Shown: positions 2,511-13,674, counted from the stretch's first letter. The stretch is DNA of 64,000 bases from an uncultured delta proteobacterium (GCA_963794325.1 CAWCDG010000004.1:1248001-1312000), one strand, 5' to 3'. Numbers and translations are program-made. Notes: generated from the sequence alone by a model not told the origin.

Positions 2511-3056
2511 TCACTTCAGCTTGCTGCGCCATTCGGTCCAATTGACTTTCCGCGATTCGATGACCTCGAGGTCGGCGAGCGCGATTTGATCGGTGAACAG
2601 GATCAGGTTGTCACATGACCAGCGAGCGTTCGGGGCGATGATACTGTCGAAGCCGAGGAAATAAGCGGCGTCGCCGATTGCCTGAGTCTGCTCATAGAGG
2701 ATCTCGCGATATCGGGCGGGGTCGACGCCAAGCGGAACCATCGCGTCTAAATTCGGAAGCCTGAGAGTCTTCGCAGTCCTGACCTTGATGCGATGTAATC
2801 CATACCTGATTTTCGACGGAAAGACCGGCTGACGTGAGAGATGAAATTGGACTTCCGCAACGGCGCCATCTGGATCCAGAGAAGTATAGAGTACGTCGAA
2901 CAGCGTGGGATCCCAGCGTCCGCCGGAAACGCTTCCCTGCAGAGGATCCCGACCGTCGCGCACGGTCCGCCAAGTCTCTCCAGCGTAAGGAACTCTATCG
3001 AAGGCGTCGAGCGCGTCGAGCAGTGCGGGATCGCGCGGCTTGCGTGCTCGCGGCAT
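2511..3056 (-). CDS. RES domain toxin (MbcT/ParT-like)
   Basis: WR...GGRW...VLYTS...AVAEV...TQAIG...GFDSIIAP.AR...NLILF pattern; directly downstream of a cognate antitoxin. Confidence 0.85.
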   Translation of the reverse strand: MPRARKPRDPALLDALDAFDRVPYAGETWRTVRDGRDPLQGSVSGGRWDPTLFDVLYTSLDPDGAVAEVQFHLSRQPVFPSKIRYGLHRIKVRTAKTLRLPNLDAMVPLGVDPARYREILYEQTQAIGDAAYFLGFDSIIAPNARWSCDNLILFTDQIALADLEVIESRKVNWTEWRSKLK

Positions 3057-7628: not shown

Positions 7629-8627
7629 ATGATTAAACGAATACTCACTGGGGACCGTCCAACCTCGCCGTTGCATCTCGGCCATTACGTAGGATCCCTG
7701 CAAAACAGGGTACGCTTGCAGGAAGAATACGATACCTACGTACTAATAGCCGACGTTCAGGCGCTGACCGACAACTTCGAGCATCCCGAGAAACTCGAAG
7801 CGAATATCTTCGAGGTCGCGCTCGACTACCTGGCGGTCGGTATCGATCCGGAAAAAACGAAGTTCGTCGTGCAGTCGATGGTCCCGGAGCTGACCGAGTT
7901 GACGATTTATTTTATGAACCTCGTCACGACCGCGACGCTCGAGCGCAATCCTACGCTGAAGGACGAAATCAAGCAGAAGAACTTCAGCAAAAATTTACCG
8001 GTTGGATTTTACACATATCCGATTTCGCAGGCCTCGGACATCACGATTTTCAAGGCTCACCTGGTGCCGGTGGGCGAAGATCAACTGCCGATGATCGAGC
8101 AGGCGCGCGAGATCGTGCGGCGCTTCAATCGTCTGTACGACAAAGTGCTTATCGAGCCGAAGGCGCTGCTTGGCGAAATGGCGCGGCTGCCGGGCACCGA
8201 CGGCGGCGCGAAGATGGGTAAGTCGCTCGGCAATTGCATTTACCTTGGCGATCCGCCCGAGGTGGTGCGCAAGCGCGTGATGTCGATGTACACCGATCCG
8301 ACGCGATTGCATCCGACGGACCCGGGCCATGTCGAAGGCAATCCGGTTTTCACGTACCACGACGTGTTCAATCCGGATAAGGCTGAAGTCGAAGATCTGA
8401 AAGAGCGCTATCGCAAGGGCACGGTCGGCGACGTCGAGGTCAAAGAGAAGCTGTTCAAGGCTCTTAACGCTTTTCTGGAACCGATTCGCGAGCGCCGCGG
8501 GGAATTCGCATCGAAGCCGGAGCGGGTGCGAGAGGTCATCGTCGAGGGCACGCGCAAGGGACGCGCGGTGGCGCAGGAGACGATGGCGGAAGTCCGCGCG
8601 GCGATGAAGATCAGTTACAAGTTTTGA
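7629..8627 (+). CDS. trpS: Tryptophan-tRNA ligase
   Basis: TGDRPT, HLGH (HIGH), VPVGEDQ, KMGKS (KMSKS). Confidence 0.96.
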
Positions 8628-8650
8628 GGGAAGAGGAAATCACTTTATTT

Positions 8651-8705
8651 AATGTGAAACCCGCGGTGGGTTTCACGCTTCCTTCGGCAGGGCTAAGCCC
8701 TGCAC
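8651..8705 (+). repeat. Double-hairpin repeat, family B (copies at 37020-37074 on the - strand and partial at 25311-25334)
   Basis: AATGTGAAACCCGCGGTGGGTTTCACGCTTCCTTCGGCAGGGCTAAGCCCTGCAC is near-identical to the reverse complement of 37020-37074. Confidence 0.85.
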
Positions 8706-8911
8706 TTTAGTACCAATCGCAAAATGGTGCGGACGCCATTTTGCTCCGTGTGTCATTTAGAGCGAAGCGAAGAATCCGGCAGTTTATACTTTATGTAACT
8801 TCGGGATCGCTCTTGTAGGTTCGAGGTTAGGTTGCGTAAAGTATATACTCGCGAACGAAATCATTAAGGCTCCTGCCTGCTTGGTGGCACCGCGCCCTAG
8901 CGGAACGGACA

Positions 8912-9571
8912 TTACAGCGTTGCGTACTGACGTGGTTCGCTCGATCTTCGGGACTGATAGCGCCAGATCCATGCATCGAAGTCGCGGCGATTCAGCCCCA
9001 GTAAATCTGCCGCCCAAGACACTGCTGCTTGAATGTAATCATACTCGAGGATCCCCACCCCGGCATCTCGCGTAAACGTCCTTATATGTCTATCTACCGC
9101 AATACGATCAATGCCCACTAAGCAGCACATATAGTCGTAGGTCTTCGGCCCGACGCCTGATAGGCTCAGAAGCTGGTCCTTGGACCGCCTGTGCTTAAGC
9201 CACTGGCGAAGGTCGTTGGTGTCTTCCACGGAGTTTGCGCCGAGGAGAGAGGCGAGTCGCGTGAACCGTGAGACCTTTGTCGGGTGCTTCCATAGTAAAA
9301 AATCAGACACTAATCCCCTCTCGATTATCGAATTCACCCCCGAAAGCCTCGCCGCTTGTGGGTAATTTGTCTGTATGCGGGCGATCCGCGGTCTAATCAC
9401 CGTGCGATAATTTAGGCCCGCCTGTAGAACAGCGTCGGCCAACACGGCACCTAAGTGGCTTGCAGTTGGTCGCGGCGGAGTCGGTTTCACAACAATGCCT
9501 AAGCGCTCAGCGTGAGCAGCGACCTTACGGGCGGATGCGAGTACTTCCAGAGGGGCAGCTGACGGTGTCAT
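8912..9571 (-). CDS. HhH-superfamily DNA glycosylase/AP lyase-like protein
   Basis: HhH motif LLSLSGVGPKTYDY followed by AVDRH (catalytic Asp position); no FeS cysteine cluster. Confidence 0.7.
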   Translation of the reverse strand: MTPSAAPLEVLASARKVAAHAERLGIVVKPTPPRPTASHLGAVLADAVLQAGLNYRTVIRPRIARIQTNYPQAARLSGVNSIIERGLVSDFLLWKHPTKVSRFTRLASLLGANSVEDTNDLRQWLKHRRSKDQLLSLSGVGPKTYDYMCCLVGIDRIAVDRHIRTFTRDAGVGILEYDYIQAAVSWAADLLGLNRRDFDAWIWRYQSRRSSEPRQYATL

Positions 9572-10197
9572 ACAGACCGTCTGGTCATGTCAATCGCCAT
9601 GAGGCGTTCTACGCAGTTGGGACAGGCCCCGCAAGGCGTATCGCTCAGCAGTTGACATGAATAGGTTGATCCAATTGGGACCCGTAGGCGTTCGGCCTCC
9701 CTCACCACCTGCGCTTTTGACCAATTGCGGAACGGAATCTGGAACTTGACTGGTCCGACATCGGCAGCCAAGCTGTCGAGCTGGTTCAGAAATGTCGCCG
9801 AACAATCAATCTCTTTCGCGTGGTTACTATTTATGAAGCCACTGTAGACCTCGGTCAGGCCCCGCGTTTGGGCGCAGGAGGCGCCAGCCGAAAAGAACAG
9901 TAGGGTCCGGTATGGAACGTAAAGGTCCTCGTCCTCAACACGCTCACTCCAAAGGTCCGGCTCCCGAATAAGCCTTGAGCGAGAGCCTCTAAATATGCCG
10001 GAAATGTCAATCCTAGTGGGTGATGACAAGCCGCGATCTTTGGGAAGCACCTTCCGAACAGTGGCCCATTCCTTCTCAACGCAGTGTTGACCATAGTCGA
10101 AGAATACGGGTACGACCCCGATCTCACGCTCGCGAAGCCAATAGGCGACTGTGGTCGAATCCAGCCCGCCGGAGCATAGAAGTAGTACCTCAGGCAT
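9568..10197 (-). CDS. QueC-family PP-loop ATPase (7-cyano-7-deazaguanine synthase-like)
   Basis: LLCSGGLDS PP-loop, FDYGQ, YVPYR, Zn site TYSC-x7-CGACPNC..R; no queD, queE or folE alongside. Confidence 0.9.
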   Translation of the reverse strand: MPEVLLLCSGGLDSTTVAYWLREREIGVVPVFFDYGQHCVEKEWATVRKVLPKDRGLSSPTRIDISGIFRGSRSRLIREPDLWSERVEDEDLYVPYRTLLFFSAGASCAQTRGLTEVYSGFINSNHAKEIDCSATFLNQLDSLAADVGPVKFQIPFRNWSKAQVVREAERLRVPIGSTYSCQLLSDTPCGACPNCVERLMAIDMTRRSV

Positions 10198-11525
10198 TAG
10201 TTCCCTCTCCTTTCGCCAAGCAGATAGAAAACGGCATTGAGGCAGGAGTCCAGGTCGCGAGAATAATGGGCGGAACCCGCCATGACCATGGTGTTAGCAT
10301 TCTCGCCCATAGGGTCGAAAACCACCACCGGGATTCTGGACTGGATGGCCAGGCCGATCTCAACCAGCGTTCCCGGATCACGCGCGCTCGGAACAGCAAA
10401 GACGAGCTGACAATGTATTAGAAGATCGATGTCTGCCTGGTAGGTTCCCTGCAGCGTAGCAGCGTCAGAGCTAGGTGGCAGCTCGCCGTTCTCTACTATT
10501 GGCCGACGGACGCGGAAATTGTGGTATTGCAGTGAAGCCAATACCCGGTCGATGGCCGCTCGCTCGGCTCCAGCGAAATCTGGCGCAGCGAGGTAGATTG
10601 ACAGCTCCTGCCGTCGCTCCCAAGGCAGGGACGCTCCCCAAAGACCTCTCATCTCCTCGAGAGAAAGCTTAAGGTCCCGTTGCACATACGTCTTGAAGAG
10701 ATCGGGGTAGGTTGTCTGCGAATAAGCGGAGCTCGCGTAAGTCGCTCGCCAGCCGGCCTCAGCAATTCCTTTGCCGAGATGGACTACATAGGCCGCTGCA
10801 AATACGTCACCAACGCCTACCGAGTTCTCGGTTGTTCCGAGCTGCGCCGGCAGTGCCTCAACTTCGCCGCTTGAGACAGATACTAACCTGGAGCCGCCTC
10901 GATTTTCTTTCAGAATCACGGTTGAGGGATTGCTGCTCGAAAACGCCCTTACTACACCCATGATCCCGCCCCCTTGGATCGATCTAAATAGTTCGGAAGA
11001 CGTGGAGATAAGAACAGTCTCCACCAATTGCGGCAGGCCAGCGATTTCGACCGGATCCCTGATGTCGTATGCCGCGTCCACATGAACGCGAGCGTTTTGA
11101 GGTAAGAGCGTACTGGCCTCTTTCAAGCTGTAAGTGCCGGGAAATAGCAGGATTTCACTGCCAGCTGTGCTCTCTACCCGCGTTCTCGAAAGTCGGACGG
11201 TCTTCTCGTCCCGCAGCAAGGTTTCGTACCCTTGGTCTGCTACCTCCGTGGGATCAAAGATTACCGTTAGATTGGGGGCTCCCTTGACGATGCCGAGGAT
11301 GTGGAAATCGACGCATCCGAGCGCCTTAAAGTATTTGTTCGCTGAGTCGACCAAGTACTCTGGCAGGATCAGGGCGGCCCTGAAGGGGGCACCAAGAGCC
11401 CAGAACCCACGGGCCGCGTGTGCAACCCCGCCCAATCTTAGCTTGTTTTCCGTCCCGGACGCCGTAACAGTGAAGTCTACAAAGAGTTCGCCGACCAGGA
11501 GCGGGGCGCTTTCCGAGGCGGTCAT
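10197..11525 (-). CDS. PfkB-family kinase fused to a C-terminal nucleoside 2-deoxyribosyltransferase/nucleotide N-hydrolase domain
   Basis: VGELFVD...LGG at N-terminus; NSVGVGDVFAAAY anion hole; C-terminal IYLAAPDF...D..LL..C...DPGTLVEIGLA. Confidence 0.8.
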   Translation of the reverse strand: MTASESAPLLVGELFVDFTVTASGTENKLRLGGVAHAARGFWALGAPFRAALILPEYLVDSANKYFKALGCVDFHILGIVKGAPNLTVIFDPTEVADQGYETLLRDEKTVRLSRTRVESTAGSEILLFPGTYSLKEASTLLPQNARVHVDAAYDIRDPVEIAGLPQLVETVLISTSSELFRSIQGGGIMGVVRAFSSSNPSTVILKENRGGSRLVSVSSGEVEALPAQLGTTENSVGVGDVFAAAYVVHLGKGIAEAGWRATYASSAYSQTTYPDLFKTYVQRDLKLSLEEMRGLWGASLPWERRQELSIYLAAPDFAGAERAAIDRVLASLQYHNFRVRRPIVENGELPPSSDAATLQGTYQADIDLLIHCQLVFAVPSARDPGTLVEIGLAIQSRIPVVVFDPMGENANTMVMAGSAHYSRDLDSCLNAVFYLLGERRGN

Positions 11526-11914
11526 GGGCGATCTGGCACAAAATCAGCCCTCACGGACGCAAGTGGCGGGCCTGCCGTCCTAGCCGTCACACGACCTGGG
11601 TAAGTCCACCCATCTTGTAAGCAGGAAGCTAGATAGTTAAATGCCGTAGGGATGTTTCCTACGCTCTCACCGTTGACGGTCTCAGCTACCAGACGCTTCC
11701 TCAGCCGGATCCGGAGTTGCTCTCCGACTGGAGGCGGTGCACCGTGCGCCGCGTAGTAGTCAGAGTGTTCAATGTCCTCGAGGGACGTGCTCAAAGCCCG
11801 CCCACAACGATCCGATGGCGGGCTGCCGCCGCCCCCCTTGGGTCCGCCACCGCTCTTGTCCGTTTTAGAAGAGCCCGGATAGTCACTGATTCTGCCAGGA
11901 CCGCTGCTACCCAT
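11522..11914 (-). CDS. Small protein with Gly/Ser-rich N-terminal tail (MGSSG) and a putative HIRAN-like beta domain
   Basis: AGAGGGGG RBS; stop overlaps the next ATG; C-terminal VGEQLRI...GESVGNIP...YLASCL.DG..Y.GRV resembles HIRAN (by eye). Confidence 0.65.
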   Translation of the reverse strand: MGSSGPGRISDYPGSSKTDKSGGGPKGGGGSPPSDRCGRALSTSLEDIEHSDYYAAHGAPPPVGEQLRIRLRKRLVAETVNGESVGNIPTAFNYLASCLQDGWTYPGRVTARTAGPPLASVRADFVPDRP

Positions 11915-12200
11915 TGAAGTTCCCCCTCTCTAGCTATCCGTTTGCTAACGCTTCCCACCGGTCGCAGAACTCCGAAGGAGCGTAAGGTAAAGACAATATC
12001 AACCCCCGAGCTACACTAGTCCGTTCGGCGCGTCTCGAACAATCAAATCGGGAGCATATACCTTGAGCAACCTAACCTCGAACCAATAAGTCCCGATCCC
12101 GAAGTTGCGTAAAGCATATACTCCCCGAAGAATCCCGGATCCTTCTTTGCGTCTCCGGCCGACGCGCGTCTGCGCGCGGCGGGTGAGAGATCAAATTTCG

Positions 12201-13674
12201 CTAGTAGGACTTCGCGAAGATACGCGCGCTCGGTGGCGGGTTCGCCGCAGGCCAGGCATTTGCCGGCGACGCCGTCGTTGGTGAGCGGGATCGCGCGGCA
12301 AGTCGCCTTGGTTTCTTCGCGAATTTTCGTCTCGCACGCTGGATTTCCGCACCAGTAGATGTCGGCGAATCCGCCGCCGCCCTCGCCTTCCATATGCTTA
12401 CGAAAGACCGCGTAGTCGTCGAACTTTCGTGTGTTCGCGACCATCGCGACCTTCGCCTGCGCGTAGAGATTTTTTTGAATCTCGGCGAGCAGCGCGACGA
12501 CGGTCTCCGCGATCGTTGCGAGCGACGCCTTGGTTTTCGATTCCGGTCCCGACTTGTCGCGCCGCGCGAGCACCGCTTCACCTGACGCGACATCGCGCGG
12601 TCCGATCTCGATTCGCACCGGGACGCCGCGCATCTCCCAGTCGTTGAACTTGAAGCCCGGCGTCATGCCCTCGCGCTCGTCGATGCGCGCGCGTATGTTC
12701 GCCTTCATCAGAGCTTCCAACGCGGCACGCGCCGCCGCCAGCACGGTCGCGCCTTCCTCGGGTTTGCGGAAGATCGGCACGATGACCGCCTGCGTTGAGG
12801 CGACGGTCGGCGGTAGGCGCAGTCCCTGGTCGTCGCCGTGCGCCATTACGATTGCGCCGAGCAGGCGGGTCGATACGCCCCAACTCGTCTGCCACACGAA
12901 TTGCATCTGATTCTGATCGTCGAGGTAGCGGATCTCGAACGGCTTCGCGAAATTCTGGCCGAGAAAATGCGAAGTGCCGCATTGCAGCGCGCGCCCGTCG
13001 CCCATCAGCCCTTCAATTGAGTACGTCTCGACGGCACCAGGGAATCGTTCGGCAGCGCTTTTGCGTCCGACGATCAGCGGAATCGCGAGAAAGTCCTCGA
13101 CGAATTGACGGTACACTTCGAGCATCCCGAGCGTTTCGCTTTGCGCTTCCTCGGCCGTCGCGTGCGCGGTATGGCCTTCCTGCCAGAGGAACTCGGTGGT
13201 GCGCAGGAACATGCGGGTGCGCATTTCCCATCGGACGACGTTGCACCATTGATTGACCATCATCGGTAAGTCGCGATGCGATCGAATCCATTGCGCGAAC
13301 ATGTGATTGATGATCGTCTCGGAGGTCGGGCGCACGATTAGCGGCTCTTCGAGCTCCTTGCCGCCGCCGTGGGTGACGACCGCCAGTTCGGGCGCGAAGC
13401 CCTCGACGTGTTGCGCTTCCTTTTCCAGGAAGCTTTGCGGGATGAACAGCGGGAAGTAGGCGTTGCGCGCGCCGGTCTTCTTGATGCGGCGGTCGAGCTC
13501 GTCGCGCAGCGCCTCCCAAATCGCAAAACCGTCGGGGCGAAACACGATGCATCCGCGCACCGGCGAGTAGTCTGCCAGCTCCGCGCGCAGGCAGATGTCG
13601 TTGTACCACGCGGCGAAATCCTCGCTGCGCGGCGTTACCTTCTTTTCGTTCTGCTTATTTGGTTTGTCAGCCAT
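12201..13674 (-). CDS. proS: Proline-tRNA ligase, eukaryote/archaea type (apparent +1 frameshift near the C-terminus)
   Basis: RPTSET, QWCNVVRWE, FLRTTEFLWQEGHT, QTSWGVSTR; canonical FAKSY-stop end lies one base out of frame at ~12219-12222. Confidence 0.93.

Follow-up and report, generated by a model that had tools for sequence, protein, structure and literature searches.

What is a QueC-family enzyme doing in a compact operon that contains none of queD, queE, folE and tgt? The question is raised by a 64,000-nucleotide stretch of DNA from an uncultured delta proteobacterium (GCA_963794325.1 CAWCDG010000004.1:1248001-1312000; hereafter the window, with positions counted from its first letter). 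Four genes between positions 8912 and 11914 encode a small protein with a HIRAN-like fold, a fusion of a PfkB-type kinase with a nucleoside 2-deoxyribosyltransferase (NDT), a QueC-family PP-loop ATPase and a helix-hairpin-helix (HhH) DNA glycosylase. Our answer, to which we assign a probability of roughly 50%, is that this cassette is a horizontally moving QueC-family protein-conjugation system of new architecture, probably directed against phages. The cassette probably represents a third kind of QueC-based anti-phage system, so far uncharacterised, and a role in defence, taken by itself, we consider rather likely.

The first gene on the coding strand (11522..11914, minus strand) encodes P0001, a 130-aa protein with a HIRAN-like fold and the predicted acceptor of an N-terminal conjugation. 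It is followed by the gene for P0002 (10197..11525, minus), a 442-aa PfkB-NDT fusion recognised from Pfam, from the invariant residues of its family alignment and from comparison of the family profile with the PDB; by that for P0003 (9568..10197, minus), a 209-aa QueC-family PP-loop ATPase identified by Pfam, TIGR00364 and PDB matches and the predicted ligase; and by that for P0004 (8912..9571, minus), a 219-aa DNA glycosylase of the HhH-GPD superfamily, Ogg2/EndoIII/MagIII-like by profile and fold match. Consecutive genes meet at ATGA (11522-11525), TAATG (10197) and ATGA (9568-9571), i.e., with overlaps of 4, 1 and 4 bases, and a Shine-Dalgarno-like GAGAGGGGG lies 5' of the ATG of P0001. A promoter and terminator scan of 8600-12300 gave no promoter-like site (1.6 expected) and two terminator-like sites (3.7 expected), both of them intragenic. 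The original prediction for this locus, made earlier from the DNA sequence, had described four co-oriented genes with overlapping stop and start codons and had proposed a domain assignment for each product. The open reading frames (ORFs) and junctions lie exactly where it had placed them, and all four assignments stand, that of the HIRAN domain weakly, on a Foldseek match with no Pfam match. Its remark that no queD, queE, folE or tgt accompanies the QueC gene is also borne out within the cassette, and QueD-like, QueE-like and TGT matches are found elsewhere in the genome.

The argument for protein conjugation starts from the N terminus of P0001, whose conserved motif the original prediction had overlooked. 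The protein begins with MGSSGxGR(I/F)xDYPGS, continues with a disordered Gly-rich linker (approximately residues 15-32) and ends in a HIRAN-like beta domain (33-130). The family set comprises 111 sequences (the query and 110 matches), of which 104 start with MG, 97 of them with MGSS, and all 104 carry the motif MG[ST]xG..x[DN]Y. In three further relatives the start is mis-called and the motif lies inside the sequence; the last four comprise a fragment, a long ORF and one sequence each with an LGSS and an MSSS start. Across the family M1, G2, G5 and Y12 never vary, and conservation reaches 90% or more at S3, S4, G7, D11, P13 and G14; the linker that follows the motif is Gly-rich and varies in length. 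The same type of start occurs in all eight genome loci, on the Bacillus plasmids (MGSTGTGRFGDY), on a Neotabrizicola plasmid and in 14 of 18 loci from IMG/VR, with the aligned part in the other four beginning within the motif or at a non-ATG start.

Only two substrates of protein modification by QueC-family enzymes are known according to the accessible portions of two recent reports, namely the CD-NTases of type IV CBASS and QatB (bioRxiv 10.1101/2025.04.06.647259, PMC13279940). The former start with M(G/S)G(G/S)GG, and after removal of the Met residue G2 carries a 7-amido-7-deazaguanine installed by Cap9 (accessible text of bioRxiv 10.1101/2025.04.06.647259). QatB starts with MGTS on a disordered tail of 30-90 residues, and a G2D mutant abolishes defence (accessible text of PMC13279940). 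Judged by sequence, the MG start and Gly-rich disordered tail of P0001 are the hallmark layout of these N-terminal deazaguanylation substrates, CdnD and QatB. A start of the form MGxxxS can also be read as the eukaryotic N-myristoylation signal of a secreted effector. We rejected this reading because P0001 is translationally coupled to a QueC paralogue, is found on plasmids of soil Bacillus and has the CdnD/QatB layout.

The predicted ligase, P0003, matches the QueC family PF06508 in Pfam (E 1.6e-30, 106.7 bits) and contains SGGLDS (residues 9-14), YGQ (35-37), D131-C132 and a Zn-type Cys cluster (C181, C189, C192 and C195). Its score against TIGR00364, the model of housekeeping QueC, is 93.5 bits, below the equivalog cut-off of 150.3, and for the copies of the cassette carried by five other genomes the scores are 83-97 bits. 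The best PDB match is Cap9 (9nto_B; E 9.2e-13 with the single sequence, 1.5e-15 with the profile), the QueC structures 3bl5 and 2pg3 come behind it, and no QatC chain was matched in either search. Judged by these relative PDB E-values rather than by a tree, P0003 is a QueC paralogue closest to Cap9, not a housekeeping QueC. That it might be a queuosine enzyme of the host was considered and rejected on the grounds that its score lies below the cut-off, that it is absent from relatives of the host and that its gene sits in an insertion. P0003 retains the P-loop, the Cys cluster and an Asp (D131) aligned to D117 of Cap9. In the accessible part of the Cap9 report D117 hydrogen-bonds the conjugated base and Y115 stacks on it (bioRxiv 10.1101/2025.04.06.647259).

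Structure prediction brings the two proteins together. In three runs the complex of P0003 with residues 2-130 of P0001 scored 0.83, 0.83 and 0.82, while the highest of three controls stayed at 0.00; 58 of 80 solved complexes attain the mark applied to this score, as do 2 of 110 mismatched pairs, counts that are approximate because our own alignments were used. The runs share at least 80% of their contacts, and the partner has a predicted local distance difference test score (pLDDT) of at least 83. On the P0003 side the predicted interface is formed by residues 82-87 and 168-206, at the Zn-ribbon end, and on the P0001 side by residues 6-15 of the tail together with 46-50, 72-74, 87-90 and 116-120, which include the most conserved domain residues of the family. 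The prediction supports binding of P0001 by P0003. The QueC side of the model could stem from solved complexes remembered by the predictor; recall is less likely for this pair because P0001 is unrelated to CdnD and QatB, though the Cap9-CdnD and QatB-QatC complexes are solved.

The second gene product combines a PfkB/ribokinase-like kinase (approximately residues 1-300) with an NDT (308-436). The NDT domain matches PF05014 over residues 310-408 (E 7.8e-13, 49 bits vs a cut-off of 28.8), the kinase matches PF00294 at 17.3 bits, below the cut-off of 25.8, and a precomputed PF00294 match exists for three close relatives. Compared with the PDB, the family profile finds NDT structures (E 1e-5) and the ribokinase-like YdjH kinase (4e-4). 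Invariant or nearly so in an alignment of 31 sequences are GG 32-33, GVGD 237-240 and the NDT motifs IYLAAPDF and DPGTLVEIG (E389), the last of which is aligned to DEGVMVELG of the solved NDT 8qc0. We take the Glu of DPGTLVEIG to be the catalytic nucleophile of the NDT and GG and GxGD to be motifs of the kinase. NDT enzymes swap bases on deoxyribose. On plasmids p509 of B. mycoides and pC1L1 of B. cereus, PfkB-NDT and QueC are fused in one 658-aa protein encoded directly after a small MGSTGTG protein. This arrangement, not noticed in the original prediction, is by its sequence a Rosetta-stone fusion that ties the three activities to one process.

For P0004 Pfam finds only a weak HhH motif. Its family comprises 708 representative clusters in which K143 and D160 are invariant, and the profile matches an Ogg2-type 8-oxoguanine glycosylase/AP lyase (9o00, best E 5.4e-8) and EndoIII glycosylases; GiGpK...vDRH is aligned to GLGMK / IDRH of 9o00, with K143 and D160 at the positions of the catalytic Lys and Asp of HhH-GPD enzymes. 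The AlphaFold2 model (pLDDT 94.9) retrieves only HhH-GPD glycosylases in Foldseek: MagIII (5.4e-4), then EndoIII, Ogg2, OGG1 and MutY (probability 1.00). No P0004 homologue was found within 8-10 kb of the two Bacillus loci, which have the other three activities, and the glycosylase therefore appears to be dispensable.

The AlphaFold2 model of P0001 has a mean pLDDT of 80, with residues 15-32 below 50 and 33-130 confident and beta-rich. Its best Foldseek matches are all HIRAN domains of HLTF (E 2e-3, probability 1.00, template-modelling score (TM) ~0.5), and the top 17 rows contain HIRAN or lp_0118 structures only. Pfam (including HIRAN, PF08797), PADLOC and NCBIfam gave no match to P0001; in a protein atlas HIRAN is the named cluster nearest to it (0.83), which we use as a lead only. 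To judge by the titles of the PDB matches, the HIRAN fold in HLTF is a binder of DNA 3' ends.

These elements can be arranged in a three-step scheme. In the first step Met1 of P0001 would be removed, and P0003 would activate a carboxylated nucleobase with ATP and join it to the alpha-amine of Gly2; the analogy with Cap9 suggests 7-carboxy-7-deazaguanine (CDG) as the base. On that analogy, and with the N-terminal motif, the predicted complex and the fusion in its support, we hold ligation to Gly2 by P0003 to be fairly probable. The original prediction had proposed that QueC ligates a base onto some target, which fits, and Gly2 of the operon's first product can now be named as the likely target. 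Its companion proposal, a release of phage 7-deazaguanines by the glycosylase and the NDT, is not supported by any result; for the NDT the simpler reading is that it attaches deoxyribose to the base on the protein, or that it acts as an effector.

In the second step the NDT of P0002 would transfer a deoxyribosyl group to the free N9 of the protein-linked base and the PfkB domain would phosphorylate the sugar, so that P0001 would end up with a deoxynucleoside or deoxynucleotide attached. We infer this step from the chemistry and from the PfkB-NDT-QueC fusion, with the NDT taking the place of the TGT-like Cap10, for which such a task has been proposed in type IV CBASS. In the third step the HIRAN-like domain would bring the adduct to DNA ends, and P0004 would reverse or edit the linkage, as proposed for Cap11. 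Written in this form, steps two and three are tentative, and we would sooner doubt them than rely on them. Carried to its end, the scheme would have a nucleotide built on a protein: the base placed on Gly2 by QueC, the 2'-deoxyribose added at N9 by the NDT, the 5'-phosphate by PfkB, and the product presented by the HIRAN-like domain to a DNA 3' end, covalently capping or marking invading ends, with the glycosylase as eraser and the base perhaps supplied by the phage in hosts that lack CDG. This full version we regard as improbable. If it were true, a phage-made 7-deazaguanine supplied only during infection would itself be the infection signal.

The cassette is horizontally acquired and foreign to its host genome. 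It lies in a strain-specific insertion (8628..12200) between the stop codons of the convergent genes for tryptophanyl-tRNA synthetase (TrpRS, plus strand) and prolyl-tRNA synthetase (ProRS, minus strand), as delimited by blastn against five genomes of the same genus. In all five the gap between TrpRS and ProRS measures 0-20 bp, and homology to the window ends at 8623-8627 and resumes at 12197-12208, from which it follows that 8628-12200 is an insertion of 3.6 kb. P0002 is found in none of 40 relatives of the host genome, 24 of which belong to the same genus. As the original prediction had noted, codon usage is less host-like than in the surroundings: the GC content at third codon positions is 0.58-0.63 in the four cassette genes vs 0.67-0.78 in 12 neighbouring genes, and the GC content per 1 kb is 0.545-0.567 inside the operon (windows of 8501-11500) vs approximately 0.62-0.63 further out on both sides. 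The operon is bracketed by the left (8775..8854) and right (12048..12128) arms of an imperfect inverted repeat, each about 80 nt long (repeat search, 83-84% complementary), and these are the only two copies in the 4.45-Mb assembly. The description of the locus as a mobile cassette thus holds in so far as the insertion is missing from all five congeners and is flanked by an inverted repeat; no integrase or transposase lies inside it. Folded as single strands the arms give weak hairpins (z -0.97 and -2.04), and each arm is partly palindromic (8781-8799 pairs with 8831-8849). The flanking repeats were not found beside the cassette in the loci searched from L001-L011. The arms may be transposition ends, attC-like sites or repetitive extragenic palindromic (REP) elements brought along from a donor.

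Conserved synteny had been anticipated for the operon, and the order of all four genes is kept in 13 of 13 proteobacterial loci (L004-L011, L020, L022, L023, L025 and L026). The cassette is also carried by 18 IMG/VR contigs, in which the order is kept wherever the contig allows it to be seen (P0001 in 18/18, P0003 in 17/18 and P0004 in 15/18). The PfkB-NDT family has at least 1,060 members at E <= 0.001 among 8,000 candidates scored (clusters at 90% identity), and 1,757 of 1,867 candidates are members of the QueC-like family; named members come from Mesorhizobium, Bradyrhizobium, Rhodopseudomonas, Methylocella, Terracidiphilus and a metagenome-assembled genome of Desulfovibrio. Occurrence within one Rhizobiales-type order is sparse, with P0002 in 3 of 301 genomes, one of them the carrier already known and both others with the small protein adjacent. 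Among plasmids in PLSDB 12 records contain the cassette, and seven of them cover at least 80% of P0002. Two PLSDB "plasmid" records of Proteus mirabilis measure 4.08 Mb and are evidently chromosomes.

Defence genes stand close to the cassette in several independent lineages. On plasmid pENH92 of Cupriavidus necator it lies between Gabija (GajA 6.1e-234, GajB 2.1e-186) and Lamassu (LmuA 4.7e-145, LmuC 2e-61, LmuB 6e-219); on p509 of B. mycoides Septu lies 3.5 kb upstream (PtuA 1.2e-167, PtuB 6.2e-93); and the region upstream of it in Proteus mirabilis encodes a DRT-class reverse transcriptase (7.9e-48) as well as an MzaA-like protein (2.3e-73). One IMG/VR contig (L028) has a phage tail gene on one side of the cassette and a type I HsdR with YgjP on the other, and another (L039) has a primase-helicase about 1.4 kb downstream. 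In the Rhizobiales locus L006 the convergent neighbour is a dGTPase-type HD protein (PADLOC 3e-122); an ORF of 473-495 aa occupies the equivalent place in L005, L007, L008, L010 and L011, and L026 has another; the PADLOC scan covered that of L006. We read this neighbourhood as suggestive and not as a statistical enrichment. It agrees with the defence-island setting that the original prediction had envisaged, though three loci (L025, L009 and L004) show no such neighbours among the ORFs tested.

Several further genes were seen around the cassette in other genomes. The dGTPase-like gene is followed by a conserved ORF of ~470 aa to which neither Pfam nor PADLOC gives a match (L006 12382-13803; also in L005, L007, L008, L010, L011 and L026), and the two may be the fifth and sixth genes of a larger island in Rhizobiales. 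A NUDIX-domain gene lies directly upstream of the MG-tail protein, in the same orientation, on both Bacillus plasmids (L021 7121-7576, L024 9119-9574) and may be part of the Bacillus version of the system. On the B. cereus plasmid an annotated tet(45) gene lies about 2.4 kb downstream of the cassette. Upstream of one cassette of Phyllobacterium (L010, 524-3538) a 1004-aa helicase has a weak N-terminal match (E 5.9e-13) to DpdH, a component of the 7-deazaguanine DNA modification system.

The island setting serves equally well an explanation in which P0003 tags the tail of P0001 and the PfkB-NDT protein is an effector, i.e., an N-glycosidase or kinase by which nucleotides are depleted or altered during infection, or a nucleotide sensor, under the control of the tagged HIRAN-like protein and the glycosylase. 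There is a precedent in the effector of retron Ec86, which has an NDT-like domain and for which depletion of adenine derivatives is reported (accessible text of bioRxiv 10.1101/2023.08.16.553469). The catalytic-type Glu (E389) and the GxGD of PfkB are conserved, and the dGTPase beside the cassette in Rhizobiales hints at nucleotide-pool warfare. However, no element that would control toxicity is evident, and the PfkB-NDT-QueC fusion of Bacillus fits consecutive steps on one substrate better than it fits an effector that has to be kept inactive. We consider this explanation unlikely, although it survives better than the other two rivals of our reading.

A different explanation draws in part on the deazaguanine genes of the genomes that carry the cassette. 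Canonical QueC (TIGR00364 above cut-off) is present in one of five such genomes (G041), where it is accompanied by QueE-like and QueD genes. QueD/PTPS is found in three of six, a QueE match (to the E. coli-type model only) in one of six and TGT in all six. The window's own genome has QueD-like, QueE-like (below cut-off) and TGT genes, its only TGT match being on a contig other than that of the cassette; no QueC above the TIGR00364 cut-off was found in its assembly, which is 85% complete. A second QueC-like gene, also below the cut-off (79.8 bits), is located on contig 7 of this genome (L002 1465-2133) beside an S-adenosylmethionine-dependent methyltransferase and a BMP-family binding protein rather than que genes. 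Because several hosts seem to be without genes for CDG synthesis, the identity of the ligated base is uncertain: it may not be CDG, or it may be supplied from outside. The suggestion in the original prediction that the base comes from elsewhere therefore stays alive.

Hosts that have TGT and no de novo queuosine genes could gain from salvage of deazapurines, and the whole cassette could be understood as small-molecule metabolism: the QueC paralogue would amidate or convert a free (deaza)purine, the NDT and PfkB would make deoxynucleosides or nucleotides from it (as salvage or as a modified deoxynucleoside monophosphate), the glycosylase would handle the base in DNA and P0001 would be a DNA-binding accessory protein or regulator. 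All three enzymes have small-molecule homologues, and purine salvage has been proposed, in the main text of PMC13329287, for a QueC group named Cluster 4 that has a PF00294-PF05014 neighbour in ~88% of operons. What this leaves unexplained is the invariant MG tail and disordered linker of P0001 and the high score of its predicted complex with P0003. A distribution of 3/301 genomes in one order and 0/40 relatives, on plasmids and islands among defence genes, is moreover unlike that of a salvage pathway, and the cassette contains no transporter. We regard this explanation as improbable. A Dpd-like DNA modification or repair module, in which the glycosylase and the NDT would exchange a base of host DNA for a QueC-made (deaza)purine and the HIRAN-like protein would target DNA ends or forks, for self-marking or damage tolerance, could draw on the catalytic Lys and Asp of the HhH-GPD glycosylase, on the binding of DNA 3' ends by HLTF HIRAN (PDB titles) and on the helicase with a weakly DpdH-like N terminus near one Rhizobiales locus (E 5.9e-13), but we think it very unlikely, as the cassette has no DpdA/TGT-type transglycosylase and no restriction partner, the Bacillus versions lack the glycosylase and the tail motif goes unexplained.

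The conjugation system that we favour has its own difficulties, and the following observations weigh against it. Each chemical step of the scheme is one that we infer. In the predicted complex residues 2-5 of P0001 lie outside the confident contacts, and the model does not confidently place Gly2 in the active site. The base-stacking Y115 of Cap9 is aligned to a Glu (E129) that is invariant in the P0003 family; this exchange is consistent, at the level of the alignment, with a changed pocket in which the base-binding Asp is kept. The HIRAN assignment of P0001 is carried by a Foldseek match of E ~2e-3 and TM ~0.5, with no match in Pfam. Several hosts seem to salvage 7-deazaguanines and may be without CDG. 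As to defence, the neighbours of the cassette in the window itself are housekeeping genes, PADLOC matched none of six ORFs around L025 and none of the ORFs tested around L009 and L004, and the Rhizobiales loci are kin, which makes their shared dGTPase-type neighbour a single observation. As to mobility on phages, 50,697 GenBank phage records contain no match to the cassette, and the IMG/VR contigs include prophage-flank and mis-called sequence.

Three other features of the window were recorded in passing. Directly after the TrpRS stop, from 8624 to about 8747, lies a repeat of ~80-120 nt with 50 matches in the host genome and 36-49 in each of the five congeners; it falls within the inserted stretch and looks like a genus-wide REP-like element or one resembling a miniature inverted-repeat transposable element. 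Near the 3' end of the ProRS gene (12043-12226, minus) a single additional base follows the conserved ...ERAY codons, five codons short of the stop at which ProRS ends (...FAKSY*) in four genomes of the genus. Here the ORF extends 53 aa into the inserted DNA and the native-frame TAG remains at 12201-12203; the additional base may reflect a genuine frameshift or a mistake in the assembly. Next to tRNA-Ala(GGC) at 2363-2439 lies the gene of a RES-domain protein (2511-3056, minus, E 1e-17), which may belong to a RES-Xre toxin-antitoxin module sited at a tRNA.

The discovery of N-terminal deazaguanylation dates only from 2025. The fate of the protein-linked base is to our knowledge the central question left by type IV CBASS and QatABCD, from neither of which we know of a target. 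The cassette exchanges the enigmatic TGT-like partner for textbook chemistry, i.e., deoxyribosyl transfer to a purine N9 and phosphorylation of a sugar, and its tail is joined to a domain related to binders of DNA 3' ends, which yields a concrete prediction for the next step that mass spectrometry can test. It is small and widespread, occurring on plasmids and IMG/VR contigs and in both Proteobacteria and Bacillota. If our reading is true, it would be a third QueC-based immune system, and the annotations "7-cyano-7-deazaguanine synthase" and "purine salvage" would be misleading for the P0003 family.

Part of the association has been in print, a fact of which the original prediction was unaware. 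Libby et al. (2026) describe a Cluster 4 in their QueC network, to which the ~88% of operons and the suggested purine salvage given above refer (main text of PMC13329287). The portion of the main text available to us is silent on the small MG-tail protein, on the glycosylase and on any link to defence; the supplements may list them (PMC13329287). In the literature searched, with subscription-only papers and supplements excluded, this paper is the only one in which we found the link between QueC and PfkB-NDT, its text having been available in part (PMC13329287); no joint mention of QueC and HIRAN as whole words was found, nor any description of the cassette as a defence system in the literature that combines "2-deoxyribosyltransferase" with "anti-phage". 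Like Cluster 4 as described in the main text, the cassette has a QueC paralogue about 10 residues shorter than QueC, with SGGxDS, a PF00294-PF05014 operon neighbour and a mostly proteobacterial distribution. The two differ in the Cys motif, printed as CH(x)5CxxCxGCxK for Cluster 4 and CQ(x)6CxxCxxC here, and in the printed YGQ(x)6E, since the YGQ of P0003 has E at +6, not +7 (PMC13329287).

The original prediction had held that the operon matches none of QatABCD, type IV CBASS and Dpd, and this is upheld: CD-NTase, QatA, TatD and TGT/DpdA are all missing, and the sole model of PADLOC-DB 2.0.0 matched by the four proteins is QueC (E 1.5e-27, P0003). From Dpd the cassette is separated by the lack of any PADLOC match of its four proteins to the Dpd components (DpdA, DpdB/C and the restriction genes). 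With housekeeping QueC, P0003 shares the PP-loop fold, the Zn-type Cys cluster and the Asp-Cys substrate motif, but it scores below the equivalog cut-off, has no queD, queE or queF neighbours, is absent in 40 of 40 relatives and is encoded in a foreign insertion. The NDT-fold domain recalls the effector of retron Ec86, where such a domain is used in anti-phage defence; unlike that retron, the cassette has no reverse transcriptase or msDNA, and its NDT forms one polypeptide with a PfkB kinase and is coupled to a QueC paralogue.

The closer relations are with the two systems in which QueC-family enzymes modify proteins. QatABCD has in common with the cassette a QueC-family enzyme with a small partner that carries an N-terminal MG(T/S)S motif and a disordered tail (essential in QatB), and the organisation as a four-gene operon. 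The differences are that QatC, at ~400 aa, carries extensions and its active site is remodelled whereas P0003 has 209 aa and no PDB match to QatC, that QatB is helical whereas P0001 is beta-rich and HIRAN-like, and that neither a QatA ATPase nor a TatD nuclease (QatD) is found in the cassette by Pfam and PADLOC. Type IV CBASS resembles it in the short Cap9-like QueC paralogue, in a substrate-like protein whose flexible tail has a start rich in Met-Gly-(Ser/Gly), in the optional OGG/HhH glycosylase (Cap11 being OGG-like) and in being mobile and associated with defence. Unlike type IV CBASS, the cassette has no CD-NTase or Cap effector (Pfam and PADLOC, with its neighbours included) and no TGT-like Cap10 (Pfam); its tail is on a HIRAN-like protein of 130 aa, a PfkB-NDT that is fused to QueC in Bacillus is present instead, and the stacking Tyr of Cap9 is a Glu. 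On the best reading, then, the nearest functional parallels of the cassette are the N-terminal conjugation modules built around QueC-family enzymes in type IV CBASS and QatABCD, from which it departs by a new substrate protein and by an NDT-kinase in place of the TGT-like partner.

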